Shown here: piece by piece, positions 5,547-53,354 of the stretch
Position numbering within the stretch: the first letter of the stretch is position 1
Layout: each line of letters starts with the position of its first letter
From: an uncultured Caulobacterales bacterium
Lineage (GTDB): Bacteria; Pseudomonadota; Alphaproteobacteria; Caulobacterales; Maricaulaceae
DNA: 64,000 bases
Direction: 5' to 3'
Assembly: GCA_937923965.1 (NCBI GenBank)
Contig: CALDTL010000021.1
Coordinates: forward strand, 3,431-67,430
Translations under genes and position numbers: made by a program
Notes under the pieces: model-generated
Databases searched by the model: none
The model's input: only the letters and a program-made list of their open reading frames with translations
Told to the model about the DNA's origin: nothing

Positions 5547-5777
5547 ATGCCCATTCCGTGGAGCCCGAATATGGTTGGCTATAGAAAAATGCCAGATATT
5601 CTCACAACGCCACGGCGAGATGCGATTGGATTTGCGGCGACTCTGGCAATCCCATCGCCTTCGCATTCCGCTAACTATACCTATTCCAAGAAAAGCGCTG
5701 TCCGCACTGCGGCAGGAATGACGGTTGGGAACACCAATCATGATACAACTTCTTGTTATCCCGCGAGAAAACTATGA
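5547..5777 (+). CDS. Possible small ORF (76 aa) coupled to the downstream gene
   Basis: Stop TGA overlaps the downstream ATG (ATGA at 5774-5777); twin-arginine-like segment [14 protein letters not shown]. No recognisable family. Confidence 0.2.
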
Positions 5778-8700
5778 CTCTTAGCCGAGTCGTCGTGAAG
5801 TGCCGCGCAGTTCCCCGCATGGTTGCGGCGGCATCGGTCCTATTCTTATTCAGTGCGGAATTAGCGCTCGCGGCGACACTGACCGTAACCAATACGAATG
5901 ACACCGGGACAGGCTCGCTCCGACAGGCAATTCTGGATGCCAATGCGACGGTGGACGTCGACACGATTCAGTTTGGTATCAGCGGGGCCGGTCCGCATAC
6001 GATCAATCTAAGTTCTGTGCTTCCTGTTATCACGGATGACGGATTGACTATCGACGCGACCACCGAGGACGGCGCGAGCTGCGGCACCACGACCAACGCC
6101 AATGACGGCGTCAGCGACCGTGCGTTGAAAGTTTTTATAAATGGAACAAACTCGGGCAACCCAACGCTAGACACAATTACAGTGACCGCTAGAAATGTGA
6201 CCATCATGGGGATTGCGGTCGGGGATGGGCGCGATGATGTGATGCGTTTAAATGGCGCGGACGGCTTTACGCTACTTTGTTCGCATGTCGGTGTGCGGGC
6301 AGATGGGATTACGGCAGATCCTGGAAATGACGTCGGTATTCTGATAGAAAACTCAGACAGTATCGTTATCGGTGACGGTACGCTAGCTGGACTAAACGTA
6401 ATTTCCGCAAATATAGGCTCGGGGTTAGAGTTCACTGCAGGCACCTCTGCCAATCCTGTTATAAAGGGCAACTTCATCGGTCTCGCTATCGACGGTATTT
6501 CGGACCGAGGAAACGGGATGGATGGGGTGCGGCTTGACTCAGTGACCGGCGCAATCATCGGTGATGCCTTAGGGGGCGGGAACGTGATTTCGGGTAACAC
6601 GGGTGACGGTCTCAATGTCTCCAACGGCGCTACGGCAATGGTGCTCGGCAACTTCATCGGTTCGAACGCCAATGGCACCAGCGCGGTTCCCAATGGAGGT
6701 AACGCGGTGGAGGTCAATACCAACAATACTTCTGCAGATATTGGCGACGGGACGACGAACGGGCGTAACTATCTAACCTCAAACACCTTGTCAGCAGGTG
6801 TCCAACTGTCGAATTTCGCAAGCGCGATGATCGACGGCAACTGGTTTGGGGTCGGTTCGGACAGCAGCGCGATTGGGAATGGTGCGGGTATCCGCGTCTC
6901 TGGCAGCAGCACCGCCAAGATTACTAGAAACACGATCGCCAATTCCGATTTCAGTGGGGTTAGATTAGATGGCACTGCTGGTAACACGGCGATATACGCC
7001 AATTCTATACATACAAATGGCGGGCAGGGAGTGGATCTTGGCTTTGACGGTGTGACCACAAATGACAGCGGAGATGGCGACAGTGGGCCGAACGATCTAT
7101 TGAATTTTCCAGTCATTGATGCGATCATCGCTGATGGAACTAGTAGCGTCGAATACGCGGTCACCCTCGACGTGCCCGATAACAGTCCCGATAATTATCG
7201 CATCGAATTTTTTAAAAATACGGCTTTGGAAACCTACGGCGAAGGCGAGATATATCTTGGTAGCGTGGATGTATCCCATAATGGCGGAAGCCAGAGCTAC
7301 GCCGGAGTTTTTTTGGCCAATACCGCTGTATCTATTGGTGATTATATTTCCGCCACAACGACACGCGAGGCAAGTGACTCTTCCTATGATATCACATCTG
7401 AATTTTCCCAAACGGTAGAGGCGATCCGCACGCCTTTGATCGTTACGACTACAAGTGATAGCGGCGCGGGCACTCTGCGTGCCGCGATCGAATATGCGAA
7501 TGCTAACACAGATAAGGACGATATAACTTTCGCCGTCCCGGGCCCCGGTCCGCATGCGATTACGCTTTCATCTGCGCTTCCAGCCATATCAGACGAAGGT
7601 GTCAGCATTGACGGCACAACTCAGGACGGCACGACATGCGGGGATTTGTGGGCGGGTGTCCCGCGCACGCTTAAAGTGGAAGTCGACGCAAATGATGGTA
7701 TCTTCAACGCGTTTTCAATTTCAGGCGCCGACGTCGCGATAAGAGGAATTGCCATTCAGGGGGTAAATTGGGTGAGCGGGAATGGGGTGAATGCCGTTAA
7801 ATTCCTGTCAACGTCAGCAAATGGTCTATTACAATGTTCCTATCTTGGGCTTCACGCCGACGGGTCGGACGCAGGGGCCGCATCCGCAGGTTTTTCAGGT
7901 GTCTTTGTTCAGGGTGACTCTATTCAAATCGGCGGGAGCGCCGAAGGAGATGGCAATGTCATCGCAAATTCCCAGAGCGCCGGCATTCGCACAGAGGACG
8001 GCGCCTTTGATCTGATTGTCGAAGGTAATTTTATCGGAACCGATTCGACGGGCTCGGCGGCGCGGCCAAATGCCGGGGGCGTCCTCGCGGCTAGCGGGTC
8101 GGCGACCTACAGACATATTCGCAACAACCTAATCTCTGGCAATAGCTCGCACGCGATTTCTGCTGGTTCAGCAGGAACTCTGACCGGATCTTCAGGTGAT
8201 TTTGTCATCGCTGGAAATTACATTGGTGTGAACCGGCTTGGAAATACATTGATGACCAATATTGGCGATGGGATCCATTTCGCCTCTGGCTCGGTCTCAG
8301 GGGTGACCATTGGCGGGACGAACGCCGCCGACCGAAACATAATTTCAGGGAATACCAACTCTGGTGTTTCGCTGAATGGCGTCAGCGCCGTAGAAATCCT
8401 TGGTAACTATATCGGGATGGGTGCGGATGGAAGCACAGGCTTCGGGAATAGCGAGCACGGTATTTTTGCGTCTGGCGTAACCGGCTTGAACATCGGCAAC
8501 GGTACTGGCAACGGTCGCAATGTGATTGGATCCAATGTTCGAAGCGGCATTTATCAGACCAATGTAAATGATGGCGTCGTCATCGATGGTAATTACATTG
8601 GTATTGCGGCCGATGGTTTAACGGCCCGCGGAAATGGAGATGGGTATCGGGGCAGCGGAATTACATTCAATAGCGCAATTTCTGACGGGGATATTATCCG

Positions 8701-10243
8701 CGGAAATGTTATCTCTGCAAATGGTGATTCCGGGATAGATGAACGCGCCAGCACAATCAGTAATCTTACAATTCTAGGGAATTACATCGGCACGGATGCT
8801 GCAGGTCAGCTGGATCGAGGTAATGATTACTTCGGTATTGTTTGGTATGGCGGTGATGTGGTGAATACGATTATTGGTGCGTCGGGCGCGGGTAATATTA
8901 TCGCAAGTTCTAAATTCGGTAGCGGTCTGGAGTTCTACTCTGGATCTCACATTATTCGCGGAAATTCTATCGGTATTGGCGTCGATGGCACCACGGCGTT
9001 ACCGAATGCAACCTGGGGCGTACGTCTTTATCCAGGGCCGGTCTCACATATCGTGGGCGGGATGGGCGCTGGGGAAGAAAATATCATCTCAGGCGCAGCA
9101 GCCGGATACTCCAATATACTTATTCAGAATGGCGCAGAGGCCTTAGTGAGCGGAAACACGCTGCGTGGTAGTTTGGGCGATGGAATGGAGCTCTCGGGTA
9201 TCGGAACAGTCGTTACTTTTCACAATAATGACGTCTATGTTAATGCTGGTGCAGGACTTGATATCAGCAACCAAGCGCAGCTTATTGCCTTCGATAATAA
9301 CATCACCGCGAACGCAGGCAATGGTGTTCAGCTAACCCCCGATGCAGGAAAAGCCGCCATTTATGGGAATGTCATTTCCGGAAATGGAGAACTAAGCATT
9401 GACCTGAACGAAGACGGGATCACGGCAAATGATATCGGCGATGCTGATTTGGGTGCGAACGAATTACTAAATTTTCCGGTCATCAATGCCTTCACTGTGA
9501 ACGGAACGGAAAATGTTTCTTATGACATAGATCTCGACGTTCCGGCCCATACAAACGGATACCGGATAGATTTGTTTAAAAATGCAGCCGGGGATCCGTC
9601 TGGTCACGGAGAAGGCGACGTCTTCTTGGGGTTCGTTGAAACAGGAAATCATGCAGGTGGAAGTCTCAATTTTTCAGGGAGTTTTTCTGCGATTGAAACC
9701 GTCGAAATCAACGATGTAATCTCTGCGACGACGAGTCGTAAAACAGGGGAGCTGACTTACGATATTACATCTGAGTTTTCTGCGGCTGAGGCGGCCACAT
9801 CATCAGATCCCGCAAGTCTATCTGTCACAAAAACGGTCTCCAATCTTGTTTCCGGTGAATTTTCTATTCCAGGAAATGACATGATTTACACGTTCACAGT
9901 TGTGAACCAGGGCGCTGGTTCCGTGACAGCCGACACAATTGTTTTGATTGATGAGATGCCAGCGGAGATGAGTTTCTTCAATGGAGACTATGACGGACCG
10001 GGCCCGTCAACTGCGAAGATTGGGTTTGAAGAATCAGATACTTCACTAAGCTTCGATCCCGAGGTTGATGCCCTTTATTCTGACGGTAGCGCTAAACCCG
10101 CAGACTTGTCCGAATGTAATTACACACCAAGCGCTGGCTATGACTCGAACGTAAAATTCGTTTGCTTTAATCCGAAGGGCGAAATGTTGGGGGGTGACCC
10201 TGATCCAAATTTTAAAATTAGTTTTCGGGCAAAAATTAAATAG
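5774..10243 (+). CDS. Large secreted beta-helix repeat surface protein with two duplicated modules and a DUF11-like C-terminal domain
   Basis: Sec signal (...SAELALA); [16 protein letters not shown] and [16 protein letters not shown] module starts; many GNFIG/GNYIG coils; C-terminal LSVTKTV...[13 protein letters not shown] 5774 preferred over TTG 5753. Confidence 0.75.
5873..9785 (+). repeat. Intragenic tandem duplication: module A ~5873-7410, module B ~7432-9785
   Basis: Both modules start with the T.T.D.G.G.LR.AI..ANA motif and end with N.LLNFPVI...YRI..FKN...GEG...LG...SATT.R...YDITSEFS. Confidence 0.85.
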
Positions 10244-10272
10244 GACCTCAGACATCGAGGCCAGGCCTCTCG

Positions 10273-10644
10273 TTAGGCCGCGAAAGCCTGACAGAGCTTG
10301 ATCATTAGATTGCGATTGTCGCCGTTATCTATGTTTTTAAAAGCCAGCATGAGTTTTATATCTTGAGATGTTGCAACATTATTTGGGATAAGCTCACCTA
10401 ATGCATGGTTTTTATTTGAAGAGCTCAGGAGGCCTTCAAAGAGGAAATCCGGCGTGATTGAAAAAATATTGCACAATTGCCAAAGACGACTGACCGAAAT
10501 GCGGTTTAAGCCGGTCTCATATTTCTGGACTTGCTGATAGGTGATGTCCATGCGTTCGGCTAGATCTTTTTGTGACATTTTTTGAGCCATGCGAAGCATT
10601 TTTATTTGCTTACCTATGTGGCGCTCGATTTCGTCAAGTTCCAT
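10273..10644 (-). CDS. XRE-family HTH transcriptional regulator (left copy)
   Basis: IGKQIKMLR...SQKDLA...ITYQQVQKYETGLNRISVSRL, the alphaproteobacterial QKYE.G.NR.S subtype. Confidence 0.9.
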   Translation of the reverse strand: MELDEIERHIGKQIKMLRMAQKMSQKDLAERMDITYQQVQKYETGLNRISVSRLWQLCNIFSITPDFLFEGLLSSSNKNHALGELIPNNVATSQDIKLMLAFKNIDNGDNRNLMIKLCQAFAA

Positions 10645-10831
10645 AGATCCCCCTCAAATCAACACGCGATGATTCGGTTGCAATTGGCGTCGCGATAATT
10701 AGCTATAGATTCAACTTTCATCGCTGCAAAGAAGAAATAATACATCCTGCCTATGGGTATGTCATGAGGGTTCGATTTAAGGACTCCCAACGCCGTTCTA
10801 AGGCTGCGGGCGTTGCTGGAATTTCAATCTC

Positions 10832-11563
10832 TTAGTAATCGATAAGGCATTCGCCTATACCTCTAAGCGACGCTGTCGTCCTGTCTGACGTTCCAGTTTT
10901 CAGATATATTCGGCGTAGGTGGCCGTTTACGGTATGCTGTGAAATTCCTATAATATCGCCAATCACTGAGTTGCTCTTTCCATGAGCGACCCAAGTCAAA
11001 ATTTCTTTTTCTCGAATCGTAAGATCGATATTGTTGCTCCTAGATTTCGAATGGAGCTTACAAAAAATTTGGTGAGCGCTTTGGCTTGCCCAATGTAGAT
11101 GTCGAATTTGAGTTTTGGACAGACGGCAATCTGCGTCATTGAAGTGGAAAACCAGACAGCCATTTCTGCCACTCGCTTCAATCACCGGAACAATAATGCC
11201 GTTATGATGATCTCCGAGGTAGAATTTTTTCAACACATGGATTTGGTCTTCCGAAAGATCTAGCTGTGTCTCTGCTTTCGACCAAAAAACGGGGGTATTA
11301 ATCTGAGATGTTCGTTTCTCAAAAGGGCTTCTGAAAAACTTGTGCTGCCTTCGAAATTCAGTGACCTGATCTTGAGAGAAACCTCGAGCGAGAAATAATT
11401 TTTCATTAAAATCGGTCGCGCCTGGTGGGGGCAGATGATGATAACCCATCTTGTCGATGCCCAAGCTTTCAACATACCCGAAAAGGAGATCCCAGACGGA
11501 ATCAGGGGACGTCGTGCAATCGAGTTCATCCAGGAATTTATAAAGTTTAGCCCGTTCTGTCAT
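10832..11563 (-). CDS. LuxR-family regulator with N-terminal sensing-type domain (left copy)
   Basis: C-terminal HTH LTIREKEILTWVAHGKSNSVIGDIIGISQHTVNGHLRRIYLK; N-terminal autoinducer-binding-type fold (PVFW, G-x-IVPV). Confidence 0.9.
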   Translation of the reverse strand: MTERAKLYKFLDELDCTTSPDSVWDLLFGYVESLGIDKMGYHHLPPPGATDFNEKLFLARGFSQDQVTEFRRQHKFFRSPFEKRTSQINTPVFWSKAETQLDLSEDQIHVLKKFYLGDHHNGIIVPVIEASGRNGCLVFHFNDADCRLSKTQIRHLHWASQSAHQIFCKLHSKSRSNNIDLTIREKEILTWVAHGKSNSVIGDIIGISQHTVNGHLRRIYLKTGTSDRTTASLRGIGECLIDY

Positions 11564-11658
11564 TATTCAATCCCCAGTGATTGCCCGCGTCAGGGAGGAT
11601 GACGCGGTTTTAATCTCTCATATCACCTGAGGAATGCCCCCTGTGTGTGATTTGAGGT

Positions 11659-11674
11659 GTTAAAGAATTGTTAG
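11659..11674 (-). promoter_or_regulatory. CtrA-like box upstream of left luxR
   Basis: Minus strand CTAA-CAATTCT-TTAAC, one mismatch to TTAA-N7-TTAAC; GANTC site adjacent at 11675. Confidence 0.45.
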
Positions 11675-11856
11675 GAATCACTGGAAGTGAATACAAGCTA
11701 TAATTGTATCGAAATGTGCCAAAAAATGACTTTTTTTGAGTGATATAGGTTCTTTTCAGCTATTTTTCCCGAGTTGTTGATGTCTGAAGGGATTTTAAGT
11801 GTAATTTCTAAGGTGAATTAGAATCGAATCATCAGCCGTGGCTCTCAAAAAAATCT

Positions 11857-12411
11857 CTAGGGAGTCCCTTTCCGATACTTGGCATTTCGGCCGGAAATAA
11901 TGACGCTGATCGAGTAAGACTTTCGAGGGTCCATATTTGCCATGATTAAACCCGCATTTCCGCTTTCCATTTGACGCAAAAAACCGGCAGCAAAAGCTGG
12001 GTCCATCGAGTTGAAAATTTCTGCCGCTTGTTTGGGTTTCATTGTTTGATACATATCGACCAGATGCTTGATGTCTTCATTGGCAATGGACGTCATGCTT
12101 TTGATGTTAGTGTCTAAAACCGCATTCGCCGCTTCGATTGCCGTCATCTGAGTTTCAAGTTTGGCTTCAACTGCTGTCAAGGCTGTTTCGCGTTTCGCAA
12201 TTTCCTGTTTGCGCAAGTTCAGTCGAGTCATATCGGCTGTAATTGTTTCTAAAACGGCACCGGTTAGGCAGGTTTCATTCGGCTGGCTTGGAGACACGGT
12301 AGGAATGTCGGCGGGTTTTTCCTCAGGCGCGTCGGCCGAGAAGGCGACGGCTCGACTGATCAATAATACGGCGAAGGTAAATCCTATAACCGGAAGAATT
12401 CGTGTTCTCAT
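11857..12411 (-). CDS. motE: MotE-family flagellar protein
   Basis: Signal peptide, coiled coil, then LVDMYQTMKPKQAAEIFNSMDP..AAGFLRQM; flagellar context. Confidence 0.7.
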   Translation of the reverse strand: MRTRILPVIGFTFAVLLISRAVAFSADAPEEKPADIPTVSPSQPNETCLTGAVLETITADMTRLNLRKQEIAKRETALTAVEAKLETQMTAIEAANAVLDTNIKSMTSIANEDIKHLVDMYQTMKPKQAAEIFNSMDPAFAAGFLRQMESGNAGLIMANMDPRKSYSISVIISGRNAKYRKGTP

Positions 12412-12935
12412 GAGGCGGAGCGTTTCACATCTGAAAGATTAATAAGTGTGTCTTGTGACCAATATTCAATTGGTTTTGACGGCGGGTGCAGTTTCTTTTT
12501 GTAATCGTTTAAATCTGAGGCAACCTTCAACAATCCTGAGGCTGTAGCTTGTGCTCTTTCGACGGCGTCCGAAAGTTGCGTGTCTATTAGAGTGTCCAGC
12601 TGTCCACATTGAGCTTTGGCTCGGTCACTGGCCTGTTCTAATTCTGTCACAAGGGCCTCAACCTTTGGCCCCGCATTTTCGCATTTTTCTAGAAGATGAC
12701 GAAGCGTTTCCACAGTCTGCAAAGTGGAGTTCTGTGCCTCTTGCGTCGCGACATGAGTGTCCTCAATTGCCTGGGTAAGAGAAAGGATAGATGCACCCAC
12801 TCCTGTTTTGAGATTGTTCAGTTTTCTGAGGCGACGGCTTAACATCGCACAATATAGACAGGCTAATCCGGATATTAAAATCAATATCATATCTGGGATG
12901 TATGGCGCAATATCGTTCAAATTCGGGATTTGCAT
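12408..12935 (-). CDS. Flagellar-cluster hypothetical protein, single TM plus coiled coil (DUF6468-like)
   Basis: TM ending ...CLYCAMLSRRLRKL, then helical heptads; coupled between fliL and motE. Confidence 0.6.
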   Translation of the reverse strand: MQIPNLNDIAPYIPDMILILISGLACLYCAMLSRRLRKLNNLKTGVGASILSLTQAIEDTHVATQEAQNSTLQTVETLRHLLEKCENAGPKVEALVTELEQASDRAKAQCGQLDTLIDTQLSDAVERAQATASGLLKVASDLNDYKKKLHPPSKPIEYWSQDTLINLSDVKRSAS

Positions 12936-12937
12936 AA

Positions 12938-13459
12938 TTATCTTACCAAAAAGTCAGTTATTAGAATACCTCGAATATTTTCGGGGCCGAGAATAAGTTT
13001 AGCGCGGCGTAATAGCTGTGAGCGCATTTGTGCCATGAAAGCGGCATCTTCAATTTGCTCTAGACGTAGTGCGCGGAGGTAGCCCATGAATGCATCCCGA
13101 ATCCGGGGATCATTTGGATCTATATAGGCTTCCTCACCCGCGCGGGTCTCAAGCGTGATTCCGATTTTAAGAATGCGAGATTTTTCCTGTAGGGAAATCG
13201 TGAGCGGCGTAAGTTCTAAAAAACCGGTCTCTTCCGAAAAATCGATTTTCTCTTCCTCTGAAGCGTGCACGTTCGTCGCGTCTTTGACGATCAGTTCCGT
13301 TTGATGGCTAGGCAGCATAAAAACAGTCCCAAAGGAAGCGGCGGCCAAGACAACTAAAGTTACTAGCCCGCCAACGAAGCTACCCTTACTGGCAGTTTCG
13401 CCGTCGCCATCCGCTTGCACAGAGGGAGCCTTTTTTGCTTTTTTTGCTTTTCTAGCCAT
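12938..13459 (-). CDS. fliL: Flagellar basal body-associated protein FliL
   Basis: N-terminal TM; FLELTPLTISL, PRIRDAFMGYLRAL, ILITDFLVR. Confidence 0.85.
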   Translation of the reverse strand: MARKAKKAKKAPSVQADGDGETASKGSFVGGLVTLVVLAAASFGTVFMLPSHQTELIVKDATNVHASEEEKIDFSEETGFLELTPLTISLQEKSRILKIGITLETRAGEEAYIDPNDPRIRDAFMGYLRALRLEQIEDAAFMAQMRSQLLRRAKLILGPENIRGILITDFLVR

Positions 13460-13525
13460 GGAGCTTCTAGAGTCTTTCGTGATGTCTAAACAATCATATG
13501 GTGTTATTTAAGTAAAGCACTTATA

Positions 13526-13541
13526 GTAAACGTTCTATTAA
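13526..13541 (-). promoter_or_regulatory. CtrA-like box in fliL/fliF divergent region
   Basis: Minus strand TTAA-TAGAACG-TTTAC, one mismatch. Confidence 0.4.
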
Positions 13542-13607
13542 TGCTTTCAGCTCTAATTGATAGTCGCCTTATTGGTGTAAGATTCACTAAACAGAGATGG
13601 CTTCAGG

Positions 13608-18120: not shown

Positions 18121-18122
18121 TT

Positions 18123-19235: not shown

Positions 19236-19237
19236 AT

Positions 19238-20248: not shown

Positions 20249-20256
20249 GGTAACCT

Positions 20257-21726: not shown

Positions 21727-21743
21727 TTGTGTGGCCTTAAATC

Positions 21744-36043: not shown

Positions 36044-36051
36044 CCCGCCAC

Positions 36052-38725: not shown

Positions 38726-38788
38726 GACCCTTCGGCGCCCGTCAGGATGACGCGTGCCCCCATTCAACATTAAATGCGGGAGGCGTTT

Positions 38789-39187: not shown

Positions 39188-39196
39188 GAGATTTAC

Positions 39197-39777: not shown

Positions 39778-39788
39778 GCTCGCGCGAT

Positions 39789-44349: not shown

Positions 44350-44739
44350 ATGAACACTTCATTGAAGATGGATTCTGATGTGAATTCTGATGTGAGTGCG
44401 GTAGATGTTGATCTTGTTATTACGCAAGACAATAGATCGATTAAGGACATCATTGATGAGTACAAGGCCATTACAATAAAGTTGAGTTTATTGGCTGATA
44501 ATGTTCCGGGCACGGAAGAAGAAAATGTAGAAGATCTTATCAAGAAGGAAATTTTCCTTTTAGATCGCCGTGCGGCGCTTCTCGAAACAGCACTTTCACG
44601 GCCTGTTACGAGCCATGATGGAGCCGTAGAAATTTTAGCACTCTGGCATCTTGAGGTTATCCAAAGTCAAACCGCCGACAGTCTTTCGGCCGCTGATGAA
44701 TTGGTCAAATCCGTGTACGATTACCTCAAAATCAACTGA
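44350..44739 (+). CDS. Hypothetical acidic helical protein
   Basis: 129 aa, purine-rich RBS, 29 nt before the XRE gene. Confidence 0.6.
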   Translation: MNTSLKMDSDVNSDVSAVDVDLVITQDNRSIKDIIDEYKAITIKLSLLADNVPGTEEENVEDLIKKEIFLLDRRAALLETALSRPVTSHDGAVEILALWHLEVIQSQTADSLSAADELVKSVYDYLKIN

Positions 44740-44768
44740 TACTGCATCTAGCTGCAAGGAGGGTTCAT

Positions 44769-45134
44769 ATGCCCACCAATAATTCTAATCGGACTGCCAC
44801 TATAATTGACGAATATGTTGGCAGTCGTTTGAAGTCACTGCGAATGGATAGGGGAGTCAGCTTGAATGAGCTGGGTGAATTAGTTGATGTTTCATATCAG
44901 CAAATCCAGAAATACGAAAATGGGTCAAATCGAATTAGTGTCGGTCGCTTATGGGACTTTTGTAAAGTTTTTGAGGTCGTGCCAAATTACTTTTTCTTGG
45001 GGTTATGGGATAAAAATGAAGGCCGGTTCCATGATACTGACTTTATCAGAGCTCGGCACTCATTTAGGCAAGCCAGGACGGCCCATGCCGCGTTAAATGT
45101 CGGGTCTGGAACGAGCCGGGTGCTCTCTCGCTAA
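44769..45134 (+). CDS. XRE-family HTH transcriptional regulator (right copy)
   Basis: VGSRLKSLR...VSYQQIQKYENGSNRISVGRL. Confidence 0.9.
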   Translation: MPTNNSNRTATIIDEYVGSRLKSLRMDRGVSLNELGELVDVSYQQIQKYENGSNRISVGRLWDFCKVFEVVPNYFFLGLWDKNEGRFHDTDFIRARHSFRQARTAHAALNVGSGTSRVLSR

Positions 45135-45254
45135 CGAGGTTTCCCAGCTCAATAACATTGATCTAATCAGCGCGCCCGGGGGACAACGAGAGGCCTATCA
45201 AAATAGTCGATAAAAATTAACCAAATTAACCCTCTATTAGTTCTTTAAACAATA

Positions 45255-45374
45255 TACACCAAATACGGGAGTTTACAGCCGCTCTCGTATCCCGAATAAA
45301 TCCCATTGAATTGGGTGATATTCATCCCTCGATCGGCCTGACAGCCTTCCCAAAGGGGCTTGTCAGGCCTTTTT
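45255..45374 (+). ncRNA. Candidate small RNA with three stem-loops
   Basis: Stems ATACGGGAG/CTCTCGTAT, GAATA..CCCA/TGGG..TATTC, then a terminator hairpin. 5' end is a guess. Confidence 0.35.
45335..45374 (+). terminator. Intrinsic terminator
   Basis: GGCCTGACA/TGTCAGGCC stem extended by GCCTT/GGGGC, followed by TTTTT. Confidence 0.8.
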
Positions 45375-45580
45375 CGTGTGACGTTAACGCCCTTTGTCTC
45401 GAAAACAAACTGCCCCCAATGGCGCGACGCGATTAGCCCTTTATTCTTTCGCTCTCTGCGAGTAGCTATTTTTGGGTAGTCTTGATTCGATACCTGTTAG
45501 CCATGGGTGATTGACACGGGATTGACCGAGGCTGCTCAAACAACATCCCGGACTTTAATCGACGTTGCAAAGGGGAGGAT

Positions 45581-46282
45581 ATGGGTATTATTTCCGCTTT
45601 AGATGATCCAGACTTTCCCGCTGAGGTATTCTGTACACTAGGGAAAAATCCTGTGACGCCAAACAGCAGCGCCTTAGCGTTAGCGACGCTTTGGGAATAT
45701 CTCAGGTGCAATAATTTTAATGGATTCGGGTATTACCTATTCGACGTGACGACAGGTCAGCGAATAGCGCGGCAGGCACGATATAAAAGGTTAAATGAGT
45801 CCCAAGCTTTCAGCGTTTTTGACACGGTCCTGGAGGAGGTATTTTCTGCCGACCTGTCACAAGAGTCTGAGATCAAAACCAATGACGGCGCCGGGGCATT
45901 GTTGATTTATCCCGTTTATGGCCCGCATTACCAAAATGCAGTTTTTATTGTTGAAATGGAGTCCTTACCTAACTTGAGTATAGGAGATCTGCGTTGGAAT
46001 TTGGGCGCGGTTCTCCAGCAAGTTCATGTTACCATTGCGAAATCGGACTCATTGGCGCGACAGGCGGAATATTCACTTTCCCCCCGAGAGACAGAGGTTT
46101 TGACGTTGATGTCCCGGGGGCAGAGCAATCGTTCGATCGCCGAGAGTTTGGGGTTATCTGTTTACACGATAAATGCTCATGTTCGAAATCTCATGTTGAA
46201 GCTGGGTGAAACCGATCGGGTGAGTGCTTGTATCAGGGGATTGACGGTGCTCAGCGGATCAAGCGGGAATAATGCGCAGTAA
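45581..46282 (+). CDS. LuxR-family regulator (right copy), divergent N-terminal domain
   Basis: LSPRETEVLTLMSRGQSNRSIAESLGLSVYTINAHVRNLMLKLG; GGAGG RBS. Confidence 0.88.
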   Translation: MGIISALDDPDFPAEVFCTLGKNPVTPNSSALALATLWEYLRCNNFNGFGYYLFDVTTGQRIARQARYKRLNESQAFSVFDTVLEEVFSADLSQESEIKTNDGAGALLIYPVYGPHYQNAVFIVEMESLPNLSIGDLRWNLGAVLQQVHVTIAKSDSLARQAEYSLSPRETEVLTLMSRGQSNRSIAESLGLSVYTINAHVRNLMLKLGETDRVSACIRGLTVLSGSSGNNAQ

Positions 46283-46355
46283 CCAGATGGTTTCCGCAAA
46301 GAGAGATCATTAGATAATTCGCCTACATTCACAGGGCGTTTACTTTTTTGTTGAT

Positions 46356-46370
46356 ACACCATTATAGTGT
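46356..46370. promoter_or_regulatory. Candidate palindromic operator, site 4 (ACACCAT-T-ATAGTGT)
   Basis: 14/15 identical to the motA site; 17 nt upstream of ATG 46388. Confidence 0.55.
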
Positions 46371-46387
46371 TTAAACGACGTCAGCAT

Positions 46388-46807
46388 ATGAATAGATTTG
46401 CGAAGTTTGTAAGGATTTCTGTCCTCGCTGCACTGCTAGCTTTCACTGGATTATTCAACTCTACCTTCGCGGCGAATAATTCAAAAAAACCGGGGCAAAA
46501 TGAAAAAATTGAGGCGCCTGCGGCCTCCCTTTATAAGGCGCAACTTTTGGCCGCTTGCAACGCATTCGAGCCCAATTCTGAGGAAACGGCAAAGAGAGCG
46601 AATGAGGCAAAGCGGCTAAAGAACATGTTTGGCGCGTCTGAGACAGTTTTGACTTTCAAAGTTCACGGCGAAACCCGCGCAATGCTATTGCCCGACATTG
46701 AAGTTATAGACTCACGGCGGATAGGGGCCGCAGATAAAACCCAAACAAGTCTCGGCCGTAAAGCGTCGCCGAGTAAATCCACCCTGGCCCCATCAGAGTG
46801 CCCGTGA
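46388..46807 (+). CDS. Hypothetical exported protein
   Basis: Sec signal MNRFAKFVRISVLAALLAFTGLFNSTFA; two Cys. Confidence 0.65.
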   Translation: MNRFAKFVRISVLAALLAFTGLFNSTFAANNSKKPGQNEKIEAPAASLYKAQLLAACNAFEPNSEETAKRANEAKRLKNMFGASETVLTFKVHGETRAMLLPDIEVIDSRRIGAADKTQTSLGRKASPSKSTLAPSECP

Positions 46808-46858
46808 CCGAGGGTGATTTCAGGCGTCGGAATTATGGGTGTCGGCTTGATTTGAGGT

Positions 46859-47920
46859 ATGACTTACCGCGGCTTTTACCTGCTATCGCGCCGTAAAATG
46901 ATCCGCTTAGGCAAGTTGGAAAATCTAACGCAAGTTGGTGGAGTTTTTTATGTCAAGCTTTTATCTGCGGTGATCCTAGTTTGTATGGCGTGGGCAAACC
47001 CTGCATTTGCTCAGACGCCTTGTGAAGCTGTTAACTCGCTCCTCACAACAATTTCGACGGTCCGGGACATTGAAGCGGACATTCAAAATGAGCAATTTGA
47101 CGCCAATCTGACCAAATTAGAGGGCCAGGTAGGTAACATGTTTCTGCCAGCCCTTTTTCCTGAAATCGACTCAAAACAATTTGCAGCCGAGCAGATGATA
47201 GTCAGGGAATATATAGATGCCATCCAATTGTCATCTGAATTGCGAGGCGCTGGTCATTTGGGCGGGACTGGGCGCGAGGTAGAGATTAAATTAGCCTTAG
47301 GAGAGGCCGTTTCGACCCAATTCAAACTCGCCCTTGCGTCAATTGATAATTATTGGGGATGCGGAATGGTCTACGCCCCTGGTGGTGAGGTGGAAGACCA
47401 ATCTTCAAATCTCTCTACGCAATTCGGTCAAGAGCGTTCGAGATCAAACCTTGCGTTGGATAGGCAGAGTTCCATCCCGCGACTTTCAAATGCGTCAAAC
47501 CGGAGTTCTGGTGTCGGTAATGCGAGTCAGGTGACGCTCAATGCAATGATTTTAGACGGCGCCAGTAGCCTTTTTCTCGTCATCTCCCTTATCGCGGCGT
47601 TCGCGGCCACTGTTTTTCTATACCTGAGGCATCAGGCTGTCCAAACCGTACGGGAGGCTAGGCATCTTTTGTATCTACCGCTCATCTCCAAAATCGGCAG
47701 CGTTAAGCACCCTATGGTGCTAGTGGATATATCAATGAACGGCGGGAAGTTGAAACATGATCAATCCATAGAGGGTAAGCCGCAGATTAAACTCTATGTG
47801 GGGAGACGCTGGCTCTCGGGTCAGGTCAAATGGAGTAATTCATCCTATGCGGGCGTCTTGTTTAAATCACCCCTGACCGCTGATTTTTTATATGATGTGA
47901 TCCATCGGGAGAGCCCGTGA
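46859..47920 (+). CDS. Membrane-anchored PilZ-domain protein with periplasmic N-terminal domain
   Basis: Signal-like ...MAWANPAFA, TM near aa 235-255, then VREARH...VDISMNGGKL and YAGVLF (PilZ fold). Start uncertain. Confidence 0.75.
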   Translation: MTYRGFYLLSRRKMIRLGKLENLTQVGGVFYVKLLSAVILVCMAWANPAFAQTPCEAVNSLLTTISTVRDIEADIQNEQFDANLTKLEGQVGNMFLPALFPEIDSKQFAAEQMIVREYIDAIQLSSELRGAGHLGGTGREVEIKLALGEAVSTQFKLALASIDNYWGCGMVYAPGGEVEDQSSNLSTQFGQERSRSNLALDRQSSIPRLSNASNRSSGVGNASQVTLNAMILDGASSLFLVISLIAAFAATVFLYLRHQAVQTVREARHLLYLPLISKIGSVKHPMVLVDISMNGGKLKHDQSIEGKPQIKLYVGRRWLSGQVKWSNSSYAGVLFKSPLTADFLYDVIHRESP

Positions 47921-48101
47921 AATATGAGGCCATGATTTCGTAGCCTCAGACATTCAACTCACTGCATTCAGTTTACACGCATTTTCGCTTAACAAACGTG
48001 TTAATTGCAGGTAAGCAACGTGTATTGGTCTGGGGAAGATAGCATAATATTGTAGTGAACCCTACGGCGTTAGTGTCTTTAAAGCCGCGTGGGAGCGAAT
48101 T

Positions 48102-51100
48102 ATGGATAGCCTTGTCGACGATTTTTCAAACGATACCAGTACGACGGGTGTCCTCGAAATTGACGGTACGGCCACAGGCACGATTGAGGTTGAAAACGAC
48201 TCGGACTGGTTTGCAATCGAGCTCACTGCGGGTGAAGTTATTCGTATTGCGGCAGATGACGCCCAAACCTACTTATATTTGAGGGACGCTGCTGGGAATT
48301 TCATTTTTAGTGGTGGCAATGACTTTGCTGCAAATGAGGCGTATATCTATGTGGAGGTGCAGGAGAGCGGAACCTATTATCTGGACGTAACAAGCTACGC
48401 TGCGAACACAGATTACACATTGACGGCTACGGTTGTTGAGGATGACTTCGCTAGCGGACCGATTACAACCGGCGTTCTTGAGGTTGGCGGGACGGCGACA
48501 GGCACCACCCATTTCGAGACTGATCAGGATTGGTTTGCAGTTGAGCTGACTGCCGGCGAAACTGCTCATTTTTTCTCTGATACACCGGATGTCTCTTTGT
48601 TCCTTTTTGATGGATCAGGTAATTTTCTGACGTCTCCCGGTTATGACTACGACACGGGTCAAGAAGTCCTCCTCGCGCAACCTACCGAGAGCGGAACCTT
48701 CTACGTTGTCGCTTACGGCCTCAACGCCGATACTGATTACACTATCTCGAGTACGGTGCTCGAAGATGACTATGCGGTTGGCACAACAACAACGGGCGTT
48801 CTCGAAATTGGTGGGACAGCCACGGGTGTAATTGATTTTACGAATGACTCGGATTGGTTTGCGATTGAGCTAACGGCGGGTGAAGTTGTCCGTATCGCCT
48901 CTGATGGGTTTTTTGATACAAATTTGAACCTACTCGATGAATTTGGAAATCATGTGTCTTTTGGTGACATCGATTATGACACAAGCGAAAGCTTTGTCAT
49001 TGCCCAAGTCGCGGAAAGCGGAACATTTTATGTTGATGTTAATAGTTCCAATGCGGGCTTGAACTACACACTGTCCACAACGGTGTTGGAAGATGACTTC
49101 GCAAGTAACGCTGATACAACCGGTGTTCTCGCTGTGGGCGACACGCTATCCGGAACAATCGATTTTAGGCATGACTCGGATTGGTTTGCGATGACCTTGA
49201 CCGCAGGGGATACAATTCGTGTCGCTATTGATGGGTTTGACGCAAATTTAGATGTAAGGGACGCGTCCGGGAATTTCCTTAGCACTGATTACATTGATGA
49301 GTTCGGCAATTATATCTCTTTTGATTACAGAGATTATGAGACGAATGAGACCGTCATCATAGTGCAGGTCCAAGAGAGCGGGACGTTCTATATCGATGTG
49401 AATGACTATAACTCGCCTGTTGATTACACGCTCACGGCCACAGCTTTGGAAGACGACTTTGCCGGAGATACGAGCTCAACTGGCGTTCTGGCGGTTGGCG
49501 GAACGGCAACAGGCGCAATCGATTTTAGGAATGATTCCGATTTGTTTGCGATTGAGCTGACAGCCGGCGAAATTGTGAGTATCGCGTCTAATTTGCTCGA
49601 TACAAATTTAAGCTTGCGAGATGCGGCCGGAAATTACTTCACATTAGGGTATGGTAATTATGACTCTAATGAGACCGTTCTCATAGCTGAGGTGCTGGAA
49701 AGCGGCACATATTATCTTAGCGTCAATGGTTACGACTCTCCCTTGGATTATACATTGACGGCAACGGTTGTTGAGGACGATTTCACCGCGAACACAACCA
49801 CAACCGGCGTGCTGGAGGTTGGCGGTACAGCCACGGGCTCAACTAATTATCAATATGATAGCGATTGGTTTGCGATTGAGCTGACAGCTGGCGACATTGT
49901 ACGTATAGCAACGGATGGGACTGACTCATATTTTTACCTGCGCGATGACTCCGAGAATATCCTGAACTTCAGTGACGTTGACTATAACTTGAATGAAACG
50001 GCGTTGACGGCAGTCGTGCAGGTAAGCGGAACCTATTACGTTGATTATACTAGCTATAACGCGAGCGGGAATTACACAATTTCAGCGACCGTTATAGAAG
50101 ACGACTTCGCCGGTGATTCCAGCACCACCGGCATTCTCGACATTGGCGGAACGATCACCGGCGCGATTGATTATGCGAGTGACTCGGATTGGATCGCAAT
50201 TTCACTTACGGCAGGCGAGACTGTCCGCATAGCGTCAGATGGACTGGATGCAAATTTTATTCTGCTAGATACATCTGGAAATTACATAGACTCCAATCGT
50301 ACTGACTACAGCGCCGACCAGAATTATATCATCGCGCAAGTAGAAACGAGCGGCGTCTATTATATCGATGTTACGAGTTATAATCCAACAGCGGATTATA
50401 CGCTGAGCGCCATTGCAATCGCGGATGACTTCGCAAGCGACACAAGTACAAGCGGCGTTCTTGAGGTTGGCGGGGCGATCACGGGCGCAATCAATTATCG
50501 TGATGATGTGGATTGGGTTGCGATTGAGCTGACGGCAGGCGAGACTGTTCGAATAGCGGTTGATAGCTCGTCCACATATTTGACCTTGCGAAATGCACTT
50601 GGACAATATGAGGTTTTCACGGATCAATATGACCATGCGACGGGTGAACAATTTATCATATTCGAGGCGGAGGAAAGCGGGACATTTTATGCTGAAGTTT
50701 CCAGTCACCTCGCCGAGTTAGATTACACCCTGACAGCCACGGCGCTTGAAGATGATTTCGCGGGTAATGCGAGCACCACAGGCATTCTCGAGGTTGGCGG
50801 GACGGCCATGGGCACAATTAACTTCAACGACGATGAAGATTGGTTTGCGATTACCCTCACGGCGGGAGAAGTTGTTCGTATCGCTTCTCAGGCAGATTTG
50901 ATCCTGAGAGATGAATTTGGGAATTTTGTCTCACAGGATAGCTACAGTTTTGACGCGGAGGCGAACATCCTCATAGCACAGGTCGAAGAGAGCGGGACAT
51001 TCTACATCGAGGTTAGCGACCATAACTCGACCTTGGATTACGCACTTACGGCCACAATTCTTGAGGATGACTTCGCAATTGGTACAAGCACAACCGGCCT

Positions 51101-53354
51101 TCTCGAAGTTGGCGGGACCGCCACAGGCACAATCAACTTTCGAGATGACTCGGATTGGTTTGCGATAACAATTTCTGACATAAGTTCGGGTCTGCGTTTG
51201 GTGGTGGATGACAGTCTTGTTGATTTAAATATTTTTGACGCGAATGGAAATTTGGTCGCAAGCTCATATGAACTCGAGAATAATTCAATATACTTCTCTG
51301 AAGTCGGTACATATTTTGTGGCCGCAGATTCATATTATTCTTTGGGTACCAACTATACCATATTGTCGATTGTTACGGAAAAATTTGAGGCAACGCACGT
51401 TGTTGCGGACACCAATATTGTCGACACTGTTGCAGATGAAATAAATGATATAACCTATTCGCTAACGCGCGACGGGACGCTCATTCGCTATTCCAATGAG
51501 ACGGAAATTTTATTGCCAGGCCTTGAGCTGGGCGTCGCCACAAGTGCGCTGTCCCTCAGTCAAGATGGCCGCTATTTATTCGCCGCTCAAGCTGAATTAG
51601 TAGATATTGGGAACTATAATGCCGAAGCCACGATTTTTCGTATAGACACAGAAACATTAGAGATGGAGTCATTCACGTTTGAATTGAGTGCTGATGGATA
51701 TGACCTCGCCCGCATTTCAGACATACAAATGGCTGCCGATGGCAGGCTCTTTGTTGCATTGGATTTCGCCGGTTCAGGTTCTGTGCCTTTCTATAGCTTC
51801 TCAGGATTTGACACCACGCCTTCAGCTGATTTAGTTGAAGATCCCGAGTTCTTTCGTGGCGACGAAATTGGGCAACGAACAAGTTTAGACATATCTCGCG
51901 ACGGGCAGTTTATGTTTCTGGCTGCAGGTAATAGCTCCTCCCACACGATTCAAATTTTCTCGGTGGAGGCCGACGCGGTTATTGCCTCGACCAGGCACCC
52001 TGGATTTAATTCCGCTGAAAACGCCATAAGCGGCGAGGCTGGTCTGGTCGCTGTGGCCGCATATAATGATGTTATAGTATATGACTTCGACCTAAACCCA
52101 GTTGCGGACTTAACAGGTATTTTTGGTCGTGCGGAACGCGTCGATCCAGTTTTCTCACAAAACGGGGAGTTCTTATTATTGGTTAACGATTCACGTTTTG
52201 ACGAATCCGGCGTTGCTATTGTTGATACCTCTAATTTCGAGATTGTGGCGTTTGTCGATATCCCCCAAAACATTTCAGATATTGTTGAAGTCGATATTAG
52301 CCCAGATGGCCTAAGTCTTATGATCACAGATGGGTCCGGCGTGCATTACGTGGATCTTTCTGAAATATTAGATGCGCCTGTGGAGGGGACCCCAAGCGCT
52401 GACACACTTGTCGGAACGGACGAAGATGATGTCATCATAGGCTTGGCGGGGAATGACACACTCGAAGGCGGCGGCGGCCATGACATTTTGGACGGCGGCG
52501 CAGGGCGCGATCATCTCCTCGGCGGCGACGGCAATGATATGCTTGAGGGCGGCGGCGGAGCTGGTGACACGCTTGATGGCGGTGCCGGCATAGATACGGC
52601 TGTCTACGAAAATTCGACAAACCGTGTGGATGTCAATTTACTCTCCGGCAACGGCAGCGGCGCGCAAGCCACTGGCGATGAGCTGATTGATATTGAAAAT
52701 CTGATTGGGTCTGATTTTGGTGATACCCTGCGCGGTGATAACGCCAGAAACCGCGTTGATGGCGGAGAGGGCAATGATGTCCTAATCGGGTTTGGCGGGA
52801 ATGATATTCTTATCGGCGCAGAGGGCCGAGATATTCTCAATGGCGGTGATGGCGGCGATTTCCTCCAGGGCGGCGCCGGCGTCGACCAGGCGCGCTACAA
52901 TGGTTCCTCGGAAGCTGTCCATATTAATCTTTTAGACGGCACGGCATCAGGTGGTCAGGCCGAAGGCGACAGGCTTCTCAACATCGAGAACTTATTCGGC
53001 TCCAATCATGACGACAGCCTGTTCGGCGACGGTCAAAATAATCAACTCTTCGGTCATAACGGTGATGACGTCCTAGCTGGGAATGGCGGGATCAATAAGC
53101 TCTTCGGAGGCTCAGGTGCAGATACATTCGTCCTCTCCGATGGATTTTCATTTGTCATGGACTTTGTTGATGATGTCGATCAGCTAGATGTGTCCGATTA
53201 CGGATTTACCTCGCTGGAGGCAGCCTTGGAAAATCTCGATCAGTTTGGCGCGCATGCTCGCTTCCGTGTGGGCGATGATGTCTTGCTCGTTCTAAACACT
53301 GACATGAATGACCTCATCGATGATATTGTCTACACAGATGACACTATGGCCTAG
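48102..53354 (+). CDS. RTX (Ca-binding nonapeptide) secreted protein, probable adhesin: 10 PPC-like repeats, beta-propeller, RTX tail
   Basis: No Sec signal; GGxGxDxL repeats near the C-terminus; 10 DDF..TTG.L.VGG...G.I....DSDWFAI.LTAG units; propeller motifs (LSLSQDGRYLF, DISRDGQFMF, FSQNGEFLL, DISPDGLSL). Confidence 0.85.
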   Translation: MDSLVDDFSNDTSTTGVLEIDGTATGTIEVENDSDWFAIELTAGEVIRIAADDAQTYLYLRDAAGNFIFSGGNDFAANEAYIYVEVQESGTYYLDVTSYAANTDYTLTATVVEDDFASGPITTGVLEVGGTATGTTHFETDQDWFAVELTAGETAHFFSDTPDVSLFLFDGSGNFLTSPGYDYDTGQEVLLAQPTESGTFYVVAYGLNADTDYTISSTVLEDDYAVGTTTTGVLEIGGTATGVIDFTNDSDWFAIELTAGEVVRIASDGFFDTNLNLLDEFGNHVSFGDIDYDTSESFVIAQVAESGTFYVDVNSSNAGLNYTLSTTVLEDDFASNADTTGVLAVGDTLSGTIDFRHDSDWFAMTLTAGDTIRVAIDGFDANLDVRDASGNFLSTDYIDEFGNYISFDYRDYETNETVIIVQVQESGTFYIDVNDYNSPVDYTLTATALEDDFAGDTSSTGVLAVGGTATGAIDFRNDSDLFAIELTAGEIVSIASNLLDTNLSLRDAAGNYFTLGYGNYDSNETVLIAEVLESGTYYLSVNGYDSPLDYTLTATVVEDDFTANTTTTGVLEVGGTATGSTNYQYDSDWFAIELTAGDIVRIATDGTDSYFYLRDDSENILNFSDVDYNLNETALTAVVQVSGTYYVDYTSYNASGNYTISATVIEDDFAGDSSTTGILDIGGTITGAIDYASDSDWIAISLTAGETVRIASDGLDANFILLDTSGNYIDSNRTDYSADQNYIIAQVETSGVYYIDVTSYNPTADYTLSAIAIADDFASDTSTSGVLEVGGAITGAINYRDDVDWVAIELTAGETVRIAVDSSSTYLTLRNALGQYEVFTDQYDHATGEQFIIFEAEESGTFYAEVSSHLAELDYTLTATALEDDFAGNASTTGILEVGGTAMGTINFNDDEDWFAITLTAGEVVRIASQADLILRDEFGNFVSQDSYSFDAEANILIAQVEESGTFYIEVSDHNSTLDYALTATILEDDFAIGTSTTGLLEVGGTATGTINFRDDSDWFAITISDISSGLRLVVDDSLVDLNIFDANGNLVASSYELENNSIYFSEVGTYFVAADSYYSLGTNYTILSIVTEKFEATHVVADTNIVDTVADEINDITYSLTRDGTLIRYSNETEILLPGLELGVATSALSLSQDGRYLFAAQAELVDIGNYNAEATIFRIDTETLEMESFTFELSADGYDLARISDIQMAADGRLFVALDFAGSGSVPFYSFSGFDTTPSADLVEDPEFFRGDEIGQRTSLDISRDGQFMFLAAGNSSSHTIQIFSVEADAVIASTRHPGFNSAENAISGEAGLVAVAAYNDVIVYDFDLNPVADLTGIFGRAERVDPVFSQNGEFLLLVNDSRFDESGVAIVDTSNFEIVAFVDIPQNISDIVEVDISPDGLSLMITDGSGVHYVDLSEILDAPVEGTPSADTLVGTDEDDVIIGLAGNDTLEGGGGHDILDGGAGRDHLLGGDGNDMLEGGGGAGDTLDGGAGIDTAVYENSTNRVDVNLLSGNGSGAQATGDELIDIENLIGSDFGDTLRGDNARNRVDGGEGNDVLIGFGGNDILIGAEGRDILNGGDGGDFLQGGAGVDQARYNGSSEAVHINLLDGTASGGQAEGDRLLNIENLFGSNHDDSLFGDGQNNQLFGHNGDDVLAGNGGINKLFGGSGADTFVLSDGFSFVMDFVDDVDQLDVSDYGFTSLEAALENLDQFGAHARFRVGDDVLLVLNTDMNDLIDDIVYTDDTMA
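48114..51370 (+). repeat. Ten diverged intragenic repeats of roughly 105-115 aa
   Basis: Counted from the recurring DD[FY] and D.DW[FIV]A motifs in the translation. Confidence 0.9.

Follow-up and report, generated by a model that had tools for sequence, protein, structure and literature searches.

A flagellar gene cluster bordered on both sides by regulators and by giant genes raises the question of whether swimming and attachment are controlled as one unit. We addressed this question for a stretch of 64,000 nucleotides (nt; hereafter the window) on contig CALDTL010000021.1 of an uncultured Caulobacterales bacterium, which carries two XRE-type regulators (XRE1 and XRE2), two LuxR-type regulators (LuxR1 and LuxR2), a flagellar cluster, and a giant gene at either end, one for a secreted protein (giant 1) and one for an RTX protein. 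The original prediction took the whole 48 kb for one inherited unit that coordinates motility and attachment through its own regulators, and pointed to a shared palindrome. Our analysis favours a different reading, to which we assign a probability of about 0.6: a conserved flagellar core with two unrelated, lineage-specific neighbours, in which the palindrome is the predicted operator of an XRE protein. Dimorphic marine alphaproteobacteria are common epiphytes of kelp and red algae, and to our knowledge their flagellar regulation is largely uncharted outside Caulobacter and the Rhizobiaceae.

Flagellar core and giant genes in related genomes

The flagellar set at 11857–43755 is complete by Pfam. 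The export apparatus is complete (FlhA, FlhB, FliP, FliQ, FliR and FliI, recognised through FHIPEP, Bac_export_1/2/3, FliP, and ATP-synt_ab with T3SS_ATPase_C), the parts of rod, rings, hook, filament and stator were all found (FlgB, FlgC, FlgF, FlgG, FlgH, FlgI, FlgA, FlgE, FlgK, FlgL, FlgD, FliE, FliF, FliG, FliN, FliK and FliL), and a FliM-like gene, MotA, MotB, flagellin, FlaF and FlbT are also present. The stretch from about 10.3 to 47.9 kb is a complete flagellar cluster of a Hellea/Algimonas-like (Robiginitomaculaceae) dimorphic marine alphaproteobacterium, together with conserved regulators. Hellea belongs to the Robiginitomaculaceae in the order Maricaulales, and its relatives are dimorphic, prosthecate and marine, often living as epiphytes on macroalgae. 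An enterobacterial Flag-2 locus was ruled out, as megablast against E. coli genomes gave no match.

The relatives that we compared stand at genus-level distance. They comprise a closest relative known from one metagenome series (loci L007, L011 and L013 to L015), Hellea sp. (L002), Algimonas (L003 and L004) and Hellea-like relatives (L008 and L010), among others. The gene order of the flagellar cluster is the same in L007, L008, L010, L011 and L013. Structural flagellar proteins of the closest relative are mostly ~77–97% identical to those of the window, and the accessory proteins orf216, orf601, FlgA and orf190 are 59–68% identical. LuxR1 (78%) and XRE1 (89%) are also well kept, whereas the FliM-like protein (51%), XRE2 (53%), a PilZ-like protein (43%) and LuxR2 (42%) have diverged far more than the structural proteins. 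In a genome collection scanned with LuxR1, matches were confined to Hellea sp. (56% identity) and four Algimonas metagenome-assembled genomes (39–42%), and searches with the FliM-like protein and XRE1 returned the same circle of relatives plus a “Maricaulaceae bacterium”.

The giant genes behaved differently from the core. No homologue of giant 1 was found in the relatives’ loci searched, and in two further loci no giant gene was called beside XRE1. Instead, XRE1 adjoins a PilZ gene and an integrative mobile element, a GltB-like gene, a gene of 543 amino acids (aa), a peptidase gene, or LuxR2 followed by a TonB-dependent receptor gene. In three assemblies of the closest relative, XRE1 is followed by 260–640 nt of non-coding sequence and then by the contig end, with no giant 1 homologue there. 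At the RTX end, which is visible in the closest relative only, the PilZ gene is followed by an aldehyde-dehydrogenase-like gene and not by an RTX gene, and no window protein matches beyond PilZ. Co-inheritance of the 48 kb as a single unit was therefore not borne out. Judged from these comparisons, both giants appear to be recent, lineage-specific neighbours outside the inherited unit. They vary independently of the cluster, the first of two signs that the original prediction had itself named as speaking against it. What looks designed when one genome is read alone, such as this symmetric arrangement with a putative adhesin on either side, may not survive comparison with relatives.

The three assemblies of the closest relative are independent, and all break within the 260–640 nt after XRE1 (L013, 10373–11015, and the ends of L014 and L015). 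This suggests a repeat or a strain-variable region exactly where the window has giant 1.

Could the whole 48 kb still be a self-contained, co-inherited swim-or-stick unit whose regulators switch the flagellum and two adhesins in opposite directions? Regulators and palindrome copies at both ends and at the motor genes are what such a unit would show, the whole arrangement is kept in same-species strains, and VisN/VisR provide a precedent for inverse control. We nevertheless regard it as quite improbable. Both giants are missing at these positions in the closest relative, and giant 1 is also absent beside XRE1 in the others examined. The regulators stand together on one side in other genera, and a natural variant apparently drops the flagellar core while keeping the giants. 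From an operator common to the motor genes and giant 1 one would expect both to be switched alike. The giants are putative adhesins, and no type I secretion or LapD/LapG genes are nearby.

The layout itself was described correctly as a list: giant, XRE, LuxR, flagellum, XRE, small RNA, LuxR, PilZ and RTX are all present among the open reading frames (ORFs) and Pfam matches, the small RNA as a candidate. “Roughly symmetric” fits these items but not their order, which is no mirror image (reading outward, LuxR-XRE-giant on the left and XRE-LuxR-PilZ-giant on the right). Giant 1 is convergent with its left-side regulators while the right-side genes all run in the same direction, and the symmetry is incidental. 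The span carries none of the marks of a mobile island that we looked for (integrase, border tRNA or flanking repeats). Neither an integrase nor a LuxI or type I secretion gene was found among the window genes (ORF list and Pfam), the sole tRNA in the window (Rfam, gathering threshold) lies at 59919, 6.5 kb beyond the span, and GC content varies from 0.44 to 0.53 along the window without a step at the span borders.

In two sequencing runs from one study (X3 and X5), contigs covering 4464–12051 and 46099–53681 had about twice the depth of the flagellar core between them. At both borders there were 60-nt junction contigs that consisted of 30 nt of flank and 30 nt of unrelated sequence; the right junction (46099) occurred in X3 and X5 and the left junction (12051) in X3 only. 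The two unrelated ends form an inverted-repeat pair that matches at 16 of the first 19 nt (P about 1e-7), as is characteristic of a multi-copy insertion sequence (IS) element. On the simplest reading of these assembler depths and short junctions, about half of the X3 population, and more in X5, has lost ~34 kb by an IS-associated deletion. The apparent deletion runs from inside the gene at 11857–12411 to codon 173 of LuxR2 and keeps giant 1, XRE1, LuxR1, orf146, PilZ and the RTX gene. If true, the flagellar core and its flanking giants are separable in nature. A third, related organism is represented in run X3 as well, by flagellar contigs of higher depth (window 11885–14000, 81–87% nucleotide identity).

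A palindrome shared by motor genes and giant 1

The palindrome that had been noticed near the motor genes and the surface-protein flank is real. Compared to an expectation of 0.63, ACACTATTATAGTGT with up to three mismatches gave seven matches in the window, none of 100 shuffles reached seven, and the strongest sites are intergenic. The consensus, ACACYAWTWTRGTGY, is a 15-bp palindrome. A general repeat search did not pick it up and returned only the internal repeats of the giant genes.

To score sites we used two matrices. The first was derived from the window itself, using its four strongest sites; its six best window matches are all intergenic, although intergenic DNA makes up 8.4% of the window. 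For the second we took the sites at fliM and motA in four genomes and the window site at 46356, but not that at 5374. Four window sites scored at least 18 with this second matrix (24041, 25056, 46356 and 5374), all of them intergenic, where chance would give 0.007 such sites per window and 0.0013 in its intergenic DNA.

Two of the four sites stand before motor and switch genes. ACACTAATATGGTGC (24041–24055) ends 3 nt upstream of the start codon of the fliM-like switch gene (24059–25042, plus strand, GTG start), and the perfect palindrome ACACTATTATAGTGT (25056–25070) lies 42 nt upstream of motA. A third, ACACCATTATAGTGT (46356–46370), stands in front of orf146-PilZ and overlaps a −10-like TATAGT. 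The fourth, GCACTACTGTAGTGT (5374–5388), is in the divergent promoter region between a lipoprotein gene and giant 1, 341 nt from the lipoprotein start and ~386 nt upstream of the giant 1 ATG. It scores 18.3 with the matrix built without it and has behind it the AT-rich tail that also follows the motA site. Two weaker copies stand before flgE (23125) and in the interval between fliL and fliF (13490). Upstream of the RTX start there is a weak match at 44 nt (score 6.3), and the strong site nearest to the RTX gene, in front of orf146-PilZ, is 1.7 kb upstream of it.

The palindrome described near motor genes and near both surface-protein genes can be retained in part: a single cis element recurs at the motor and switch genes, at the PilZ genes and in the giant 1 promoter region, but the RTX copy is weak. 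If one operator serves both the motor genes and giant 1, they would be expected to respond alike and not to show the inverse control of a swim-or-stick switch. A ten-letter sequence shared upstream of both giant genes, TTAATTGCAG, was dismissed as chance-level for a 10-mer.

In the relatives, the fliM and motA positions of the palindrome are kept in L007, L008 and L010 while the surrounding DNA has diverged. Further copies occur between fliF and fliL (Algimonas), before REC-LuxR2 or LuxR2 genes divergent from XRE1 (L003, L004 and L006), between XRE1 and its divergent neighbour (L016, L017 and L018), and before PilZ or orf175 genes (L011 and L012). L020 has the palindrome twice upstream of XRE1 and a weaker one between fliI and flgB. 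L011 has a strong copy in the gap between XRE2 and LuxR2, before the small-RNA candidate, where that of the window is degenerate.

What kind of element is this? The outer arms ACAC...GTGT are symmetric and invariant, while positions 5 and 11, which would pair with each other, change independently and often combine C with A. Because these positions do not co-vary, the palindrome is better read as degenerate half-sites for a dimeric DNA-binding protein than as an RNA stem, and an RNA hairpin was rejected on this ground. That it is a mere shared promoter element or a 5'-leader RNA hairpin, with no dedicated regulator, is highly improbable. The centre does resemble a −10 hexamer (TATTAT, TAATAT or TATAGT), and a leaderless mRNA would result at fliM. 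Two-fold symmetry of conserved outer arms is unexpected for a sigma-factor site, however, the arms lack compensatory changes and commonly hold C5/A11 pairs, and a 7-1-7 palindrome makes a poor RNA hairpin.

The position of the sites bears on the kind of regulator. Given its overlap with −10-like hexamers and the 3 nt between its end and the fliM start, there is no space in which an activator could bind. A repressor is the simplest reading, because the bound protein would sit on the core promoter or the transcription start. XRE-family proteins are typically such repressors.

An alternative is that the palindrome is a lux-box-like site through which LuxR1 and LuxR2 activate transcription in the fashion of VisN/VisR. 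With its conserved flanks (AACAC...GTGTT) the element spans 17–19 bp, close to lux and tra boxes; the LuxR1 helix-turn-helix (HTH) is very conserved across genera; LuxR pairs are class I flagellar regulators in the Rhizobiaceae; and the site stands before LuxR2 in L004 and before REC-LuxR2 genes in L003. On the other hand, the sites share bases with −10-like hexamers and lie close to start codons (3 nt at fliM, 42 nt at motA); a class II activator box would be expected to have its centre near −42. LuxR2 is poorly conserved (42–61%, two homologues) compared to a motif that is invariant across genera, and the motif accompanies XRE1 wherever XRE1 has a divergent neighbour. We therefore regard the lux-box reading as unlikely. 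As to the binding protein itself, position and co-occurrence with XRE1 give XRE1/XRE2 roughly even odds; the LuxR pair is a rather doubtful candidate, and the remaining probability falls to another protein.

The TTAA-N7-GTAA element directly after the motA palindrome, present in all four genomes (25074–25088 in the window; ~9918–9932 in L008 and L010), is one mismatch from a CtrA box. The window contains no exact match to the CtrA box TTAA-N7-TTAA, and one-mismatch matches number 24 compared to 28 expected; with no more matches than chance would give, CtrA control is not evident in the window. Perfect boxes (TTAA-N7-TTAA) do occur in L008 and L010, in the interval from motB to fliM.

The site at 5374 also bears on what giant 1 is. 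Giant 1 (5774–10243, plus strand, ~1490 aa from the likely ATG at 5774 in an ORF of 1496 aa at 5753–10243) has a signal peptide, two internal ~790-aa repeats (halves 37% identical), beta-helix/NosD domains and a DUF11-like C-terminus, and its stop codon is 30 nt from that of XRE1. Divergent from it is a beta-helix lipoprotein gene of 478 aa (3597–5033, minus strand; Pfam Beta_helix and NosD, lipobox LAAC in the translation), which is a neighbour and no conserved part of the locus. The RTX protein (48102–53354, plus strand, 1750 aa) is very acidic and has neither a signal peptide nor cysteine. It begins directly with nine or ten PPC-type repeats of 108 aa (324 nt), with no LapA-type retention module recognised on inspection of the N-terminus, and carries eight GGxGxD motifs and HemolysinCabind in four stretches. 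With adhesins of the LapA, SiiE and MpIBP kind it shares tandem repeats of ~108 aa, C-terminal RTX nonapeptides, acidity and the lack of cysteine and signal peptide. Unlike them, it has PPC-type repeats and no recognised LapA-like retention module, and the window holds no type I secretion system and no LapD or LapG gene.

It is possible, if doubtful, that the giants have nothing to do with attachment, giant 1 and the lipoprotein belonging with algal-polysaccharide genes, the RTX protein being a calcium-binding or S-layer-type protein, and their position being incidental. Genes for a GMC oxidoreductase, a 3-keto-disaccharide hydrolase and a sulfatase give the left flank a polysaccharide-utilisation character, as would suit a bacterium living on algae; Beta_helix/NosD domains occur in both giant 1 and the lipoprotein; the relatives are macroalgal epiphytes; and inspection of the RTX protein showed no N-terminal module of the LapA type, with no genes for secretion, LapD or LapG nearby. 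Giant 1 may indeed be functionally tied to the adjacent polysaccharide-utilisation genes. In contrast, the statistically strong operator copy at 5374 suggests a regulatory link to the flagellar locus, and tandem-repeat RTX proteins are often adhesins.

The regulators and the systems they resemble

XRE1 (10273–10644, minus strand, Pfam HTH_3) is the most conserved regulator of the locus, with 82 homologues at 59–89% identity (64–89% in the relatives compared), and it adjoins the flagellar cluster in all contexts read. XRE2 (44769–45134, plus strand) is its paralogue, 48% identical over 67 aa. LuxR1 (10832–11563, minus strand) combines an autoinducer-binding-like domain (PF03472, E 3e-12) with a GerE HTH (PF00196) that is very conserved across genera; with no autoinducer synthase among the window genes, it is a solo receptor. 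LuxR2 (45581–46282, plus strand) has only the GerE HTH among known domains, its N-terminal domain being unassigned. A search with LuxR2 found two homologues (61% and 42% identity), which limits comparison of the right end.

In other genera the regulators stand together. The order is LuxR2-LuxR1-orf99-XRE1, inserted beside flgD, in L020; LuxR1-XRE1-(REC)-LuxR2 in Algimonas (L003 and L004); and LuxR1-orf120-XRE1-PilZ in Hellea sp. (L002). The LuxR2-type genes beside LuxR1 in L003, L004 and L020 (GerE HTH, 248–265 aa) have no recorded significant match to the window LuxR2. The neighbouring LuxR pair is probably the ancestral arrangement, and a local rearrangement is the likely source of the split to both cluster ends that the window shares with its closest relative. 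That the locus has its own regulators was confirmed: related genomes keep them together with the flagellar cluster, and it is there that they belong.

After PilZ, L002 has an integrase fragment, the genes of an ABC-3C defence system and genes for conjugative transfer (TrbI, CagX) at 12907–20503; in Hellea sp. an integrative element is inserted at the edge of the flagellar locus. Between LuxR1 and XRE1, most relatives have an acidic protein of ~100 aa with no known family (L002, 10866–11228; L004, 10850–11188; L016, 2659–2967; L017, 2215–2523; L020, 9260–9559). It is missing beside XRE1 in the window and the closest relative, where another small acidic protein, orf129, precedes XRE2.

How do these regulators compare with characterised ones? 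In Agrobacterium, a LuxR pair in the flagellar regulon (VisN/VisR) activates motility and inversely controls attachment (PMC4018554). VisN/VisR of Sinorhizobium meliloti and Agrobacterium tumefaciens, like LuxR1 and LuxR2, are two LuxR paralogues in or beside an alphaproteobacterial cluster with FlaF and FlbT, and in L020, L003 and L004 the LuxR genes are adjacent as visN and visR are. In contrast, the LuxR genes of the window are split to opposite cluster ends, and no Rem-type OmpR regulator is present, as no Trans_reg_C protein was found in the window. L020 has a Trans_reg_C protein of 773 aa beside LuxR2. The window locus also adds a conserved XRE regulator, a predicted palindromic operator, a PilZ-like protein and a small-RNA candidate. 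By analogy, LuxR1 and LuxR2 would work like VisN/VisR and not be members of that family.

The nearest comparison for the XRE proteins is with Caulobacter, in which the XRE paralogues RtrA, RtrB, CdxA and CdxB have overlapping binding sites and control the decision between motile and attached life (PMC10688885). Both sets are small HTH_3 regulators from related orders of dimorphic bacteria, the likeness being one of shared HTH family. Unlike the predicted action of XRE1 and XRE2, the Caulobacter proteins have the holdfast inhibitor gene hfiA as their target in place of flagellar motor genes, the motif described for them pairs a strong with a weak half-site and is no symmetric 15-mer, and linkage to a flagellar cluster was not reported.

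The PilZ-like membrane protein (46859–47920, plus strand, 353 aa) consists of a signal or transmembrane segment, a periplasmic helical domain, a second transmembrane segment and a C-terminal PilZ-like barrel. Its DISMNG (DxSxxG) motif is invariant, and the Hellea orthologue passes Pfam at 27.2 bits. A profile search against Protein Data Bank (PDB) sequences gave no match, and a single-sequence AlphaFold model (predicted local distance difference test, pLDDT, of 37) was too poor for a fold search. As with YcgR and Caulobacter DgrA/DgrB, a PilZ-type protein is encoded with flagellar genes, here under a control site that it has in common with motA and fliM. By this likeness it plausibly couples cyclic di-GMP (c-di-GMP) to motor function. 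In contrast to those proteins, it is membrane-anchored with a large periplasmic helical domain, a sub-threshold Pfam score and a REARH motif.

The gap between XRE2 and LuxR2 measures 446 nt and has a fold z-score of −4.1. It contains a small-RNA candidate (45260–45376, ends approximate, plus strand) with a −10-like AATATA at 45251–45256, two hairpins, and a 14-bp terminator at 45335–45369 followed by a U run. L011 keeps the terminator, its loop UUCCCAAAG and the upstream block TATATACAC, and the region has no Rfam match even at E up to 1. From these features, a small transcript of ~115 nt is plausible.

Taken together, the locus is a flagellar regulon of the alphaproteobacterial kind that has a LuxR pair and, in addition, a conserved layer of XRE regulator and predicted operator, a PilZ-like protein and a candidate small RNA. 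On the reading that we favour, XRE1 and XRE2 would repress by binding the palindrome as an operator on the core promoters of fliM, motA and orf146-PilZ, LuxR1 and LuxR2 would act as an activator pair similar to VisN/VisR, and the PilZ-like protein would couple c-di-GMP to the motor. Giant 1 may have been recruited into this regulon and be switched in the same direction as the motor genes, and the RTX gene would be reachable only by read-through from orf146-PilZ. More tentatively, it could be speculated that the XRE repressor and its 15-bp operator form an undescribed control layer over motA, fliM and fliF/fliL in the Robiginitomaculaceae and Maricaulales, wired with the LuxR pair, the PilZ-like receptor and the small RNA, and that the XRE-side position is a docking site for cargo. 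If this is true, the cargo under the operator is a giant surface protein here and PilZ, a GltB-like gene or REC-LuxR2 elsewhere, and the link between swimming and sticking is real but modular and lineage-specific. In any case the regulon is compact and testable, with one conserved, predicted operator, a few adjacent candidate regulators and an apparent natural flagellum-less variant in public data.

Several observations weigh against the reading that we favour. Four DNA runs hold near-identical same-species copies of the locus with both giants in place, with which recent co-inheritance of the giants and the cluster within the species is compatible. The window and the closest relative have no palindrome directly before XRE1. 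Single palindrome sites can be due to chance; in ~288 kb of related loci scanned, one match of 17.2 lies inside the hutU gene of L006, so false positives exist, although they are rare. LuxR1 scored 39.4 bits against the NCBIfam equivalog model of VisN (cut-off 250) and LuxR2 28.4 bits against that of VisR (cut-off 300), both far below the cut-offs, and there is no Rem-like OmpR regulator in the window. The window PilZ domain scored 14.3 bits compared to the Pfam cut-off of 22.5, aligned over profile positions 4–89 of 102, and its first PilZ motif is REARH and not RxxxR in the window, L011 and L012 (RKREERR in Hellea sp.). Finally, no RNA sequencing run was found that holds the locus.

Remaining genes of the window

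Starting from LuxR1, the flagellar core opens on the minus strand with an MgtE_N-like gene of 184 aa, orf175 and fliL (11857–13459), which are kept in all relatives. There follow fliF, orf216, fliN, fliP and fliG on the plus strand (13608–18120) and flgI, flgL, flgK, flgE and motB on the minus strand (18123–23997). Beyond the fliM-like gene, motA, orf601, flgF, flgG, flgA, flgH and orf190 (25112–31103, plus), flgD and fliK (31129–32856, minus), a flgJ-like rod-binding gene, a flgN-like gene, flagellin, flaF, flbT and a DUF1217 gene (32935–36885, plus), the fliI ATPase gene (36882–38261, minus), and flgB, flgC, fliE, fliQ, flhA, fliR and flhB (38363–43755, plus) complete the core.

The right-hand regulators begin with orf129 (44350–44739, plus), an acidic protein with no known family that forms with XRE2 a segment at 44350–45134; both genes are kept in the closest relative (L011). 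Downstream of LuxR2, orf146 (46367–46807, plus) encodes a small secreted protein that has no known family and is distinct from the PilZ protein. The left flank of the window (16–5033) holds GMC oxidoreductase fragments, the 3-keto-disaccharide hydrolase, the sulfatase and the beta-helix lipoprotein (ORFs and Pfam), and the right flank holds housekeeping genes (pdxH and others).

Two further points concern the start codons around the fliM palindrome. Compared to 265 aa in all relatives, the motB ORF of the window has 282 aa (23149–23997); translation probably starts ~17 codons downstream of the ORF start, which would widen the intergenic region between motB and fliM. The start codon of the fliM-like gene (GTG in the window, ATG in the relatives) comes so soon after the palindrome (3 nt) that a normal ribosome-binding site would not fit, and the transcript of this gene may be leaderless. 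The N-terminus encoded behind this start codon is conserved in the relatives.

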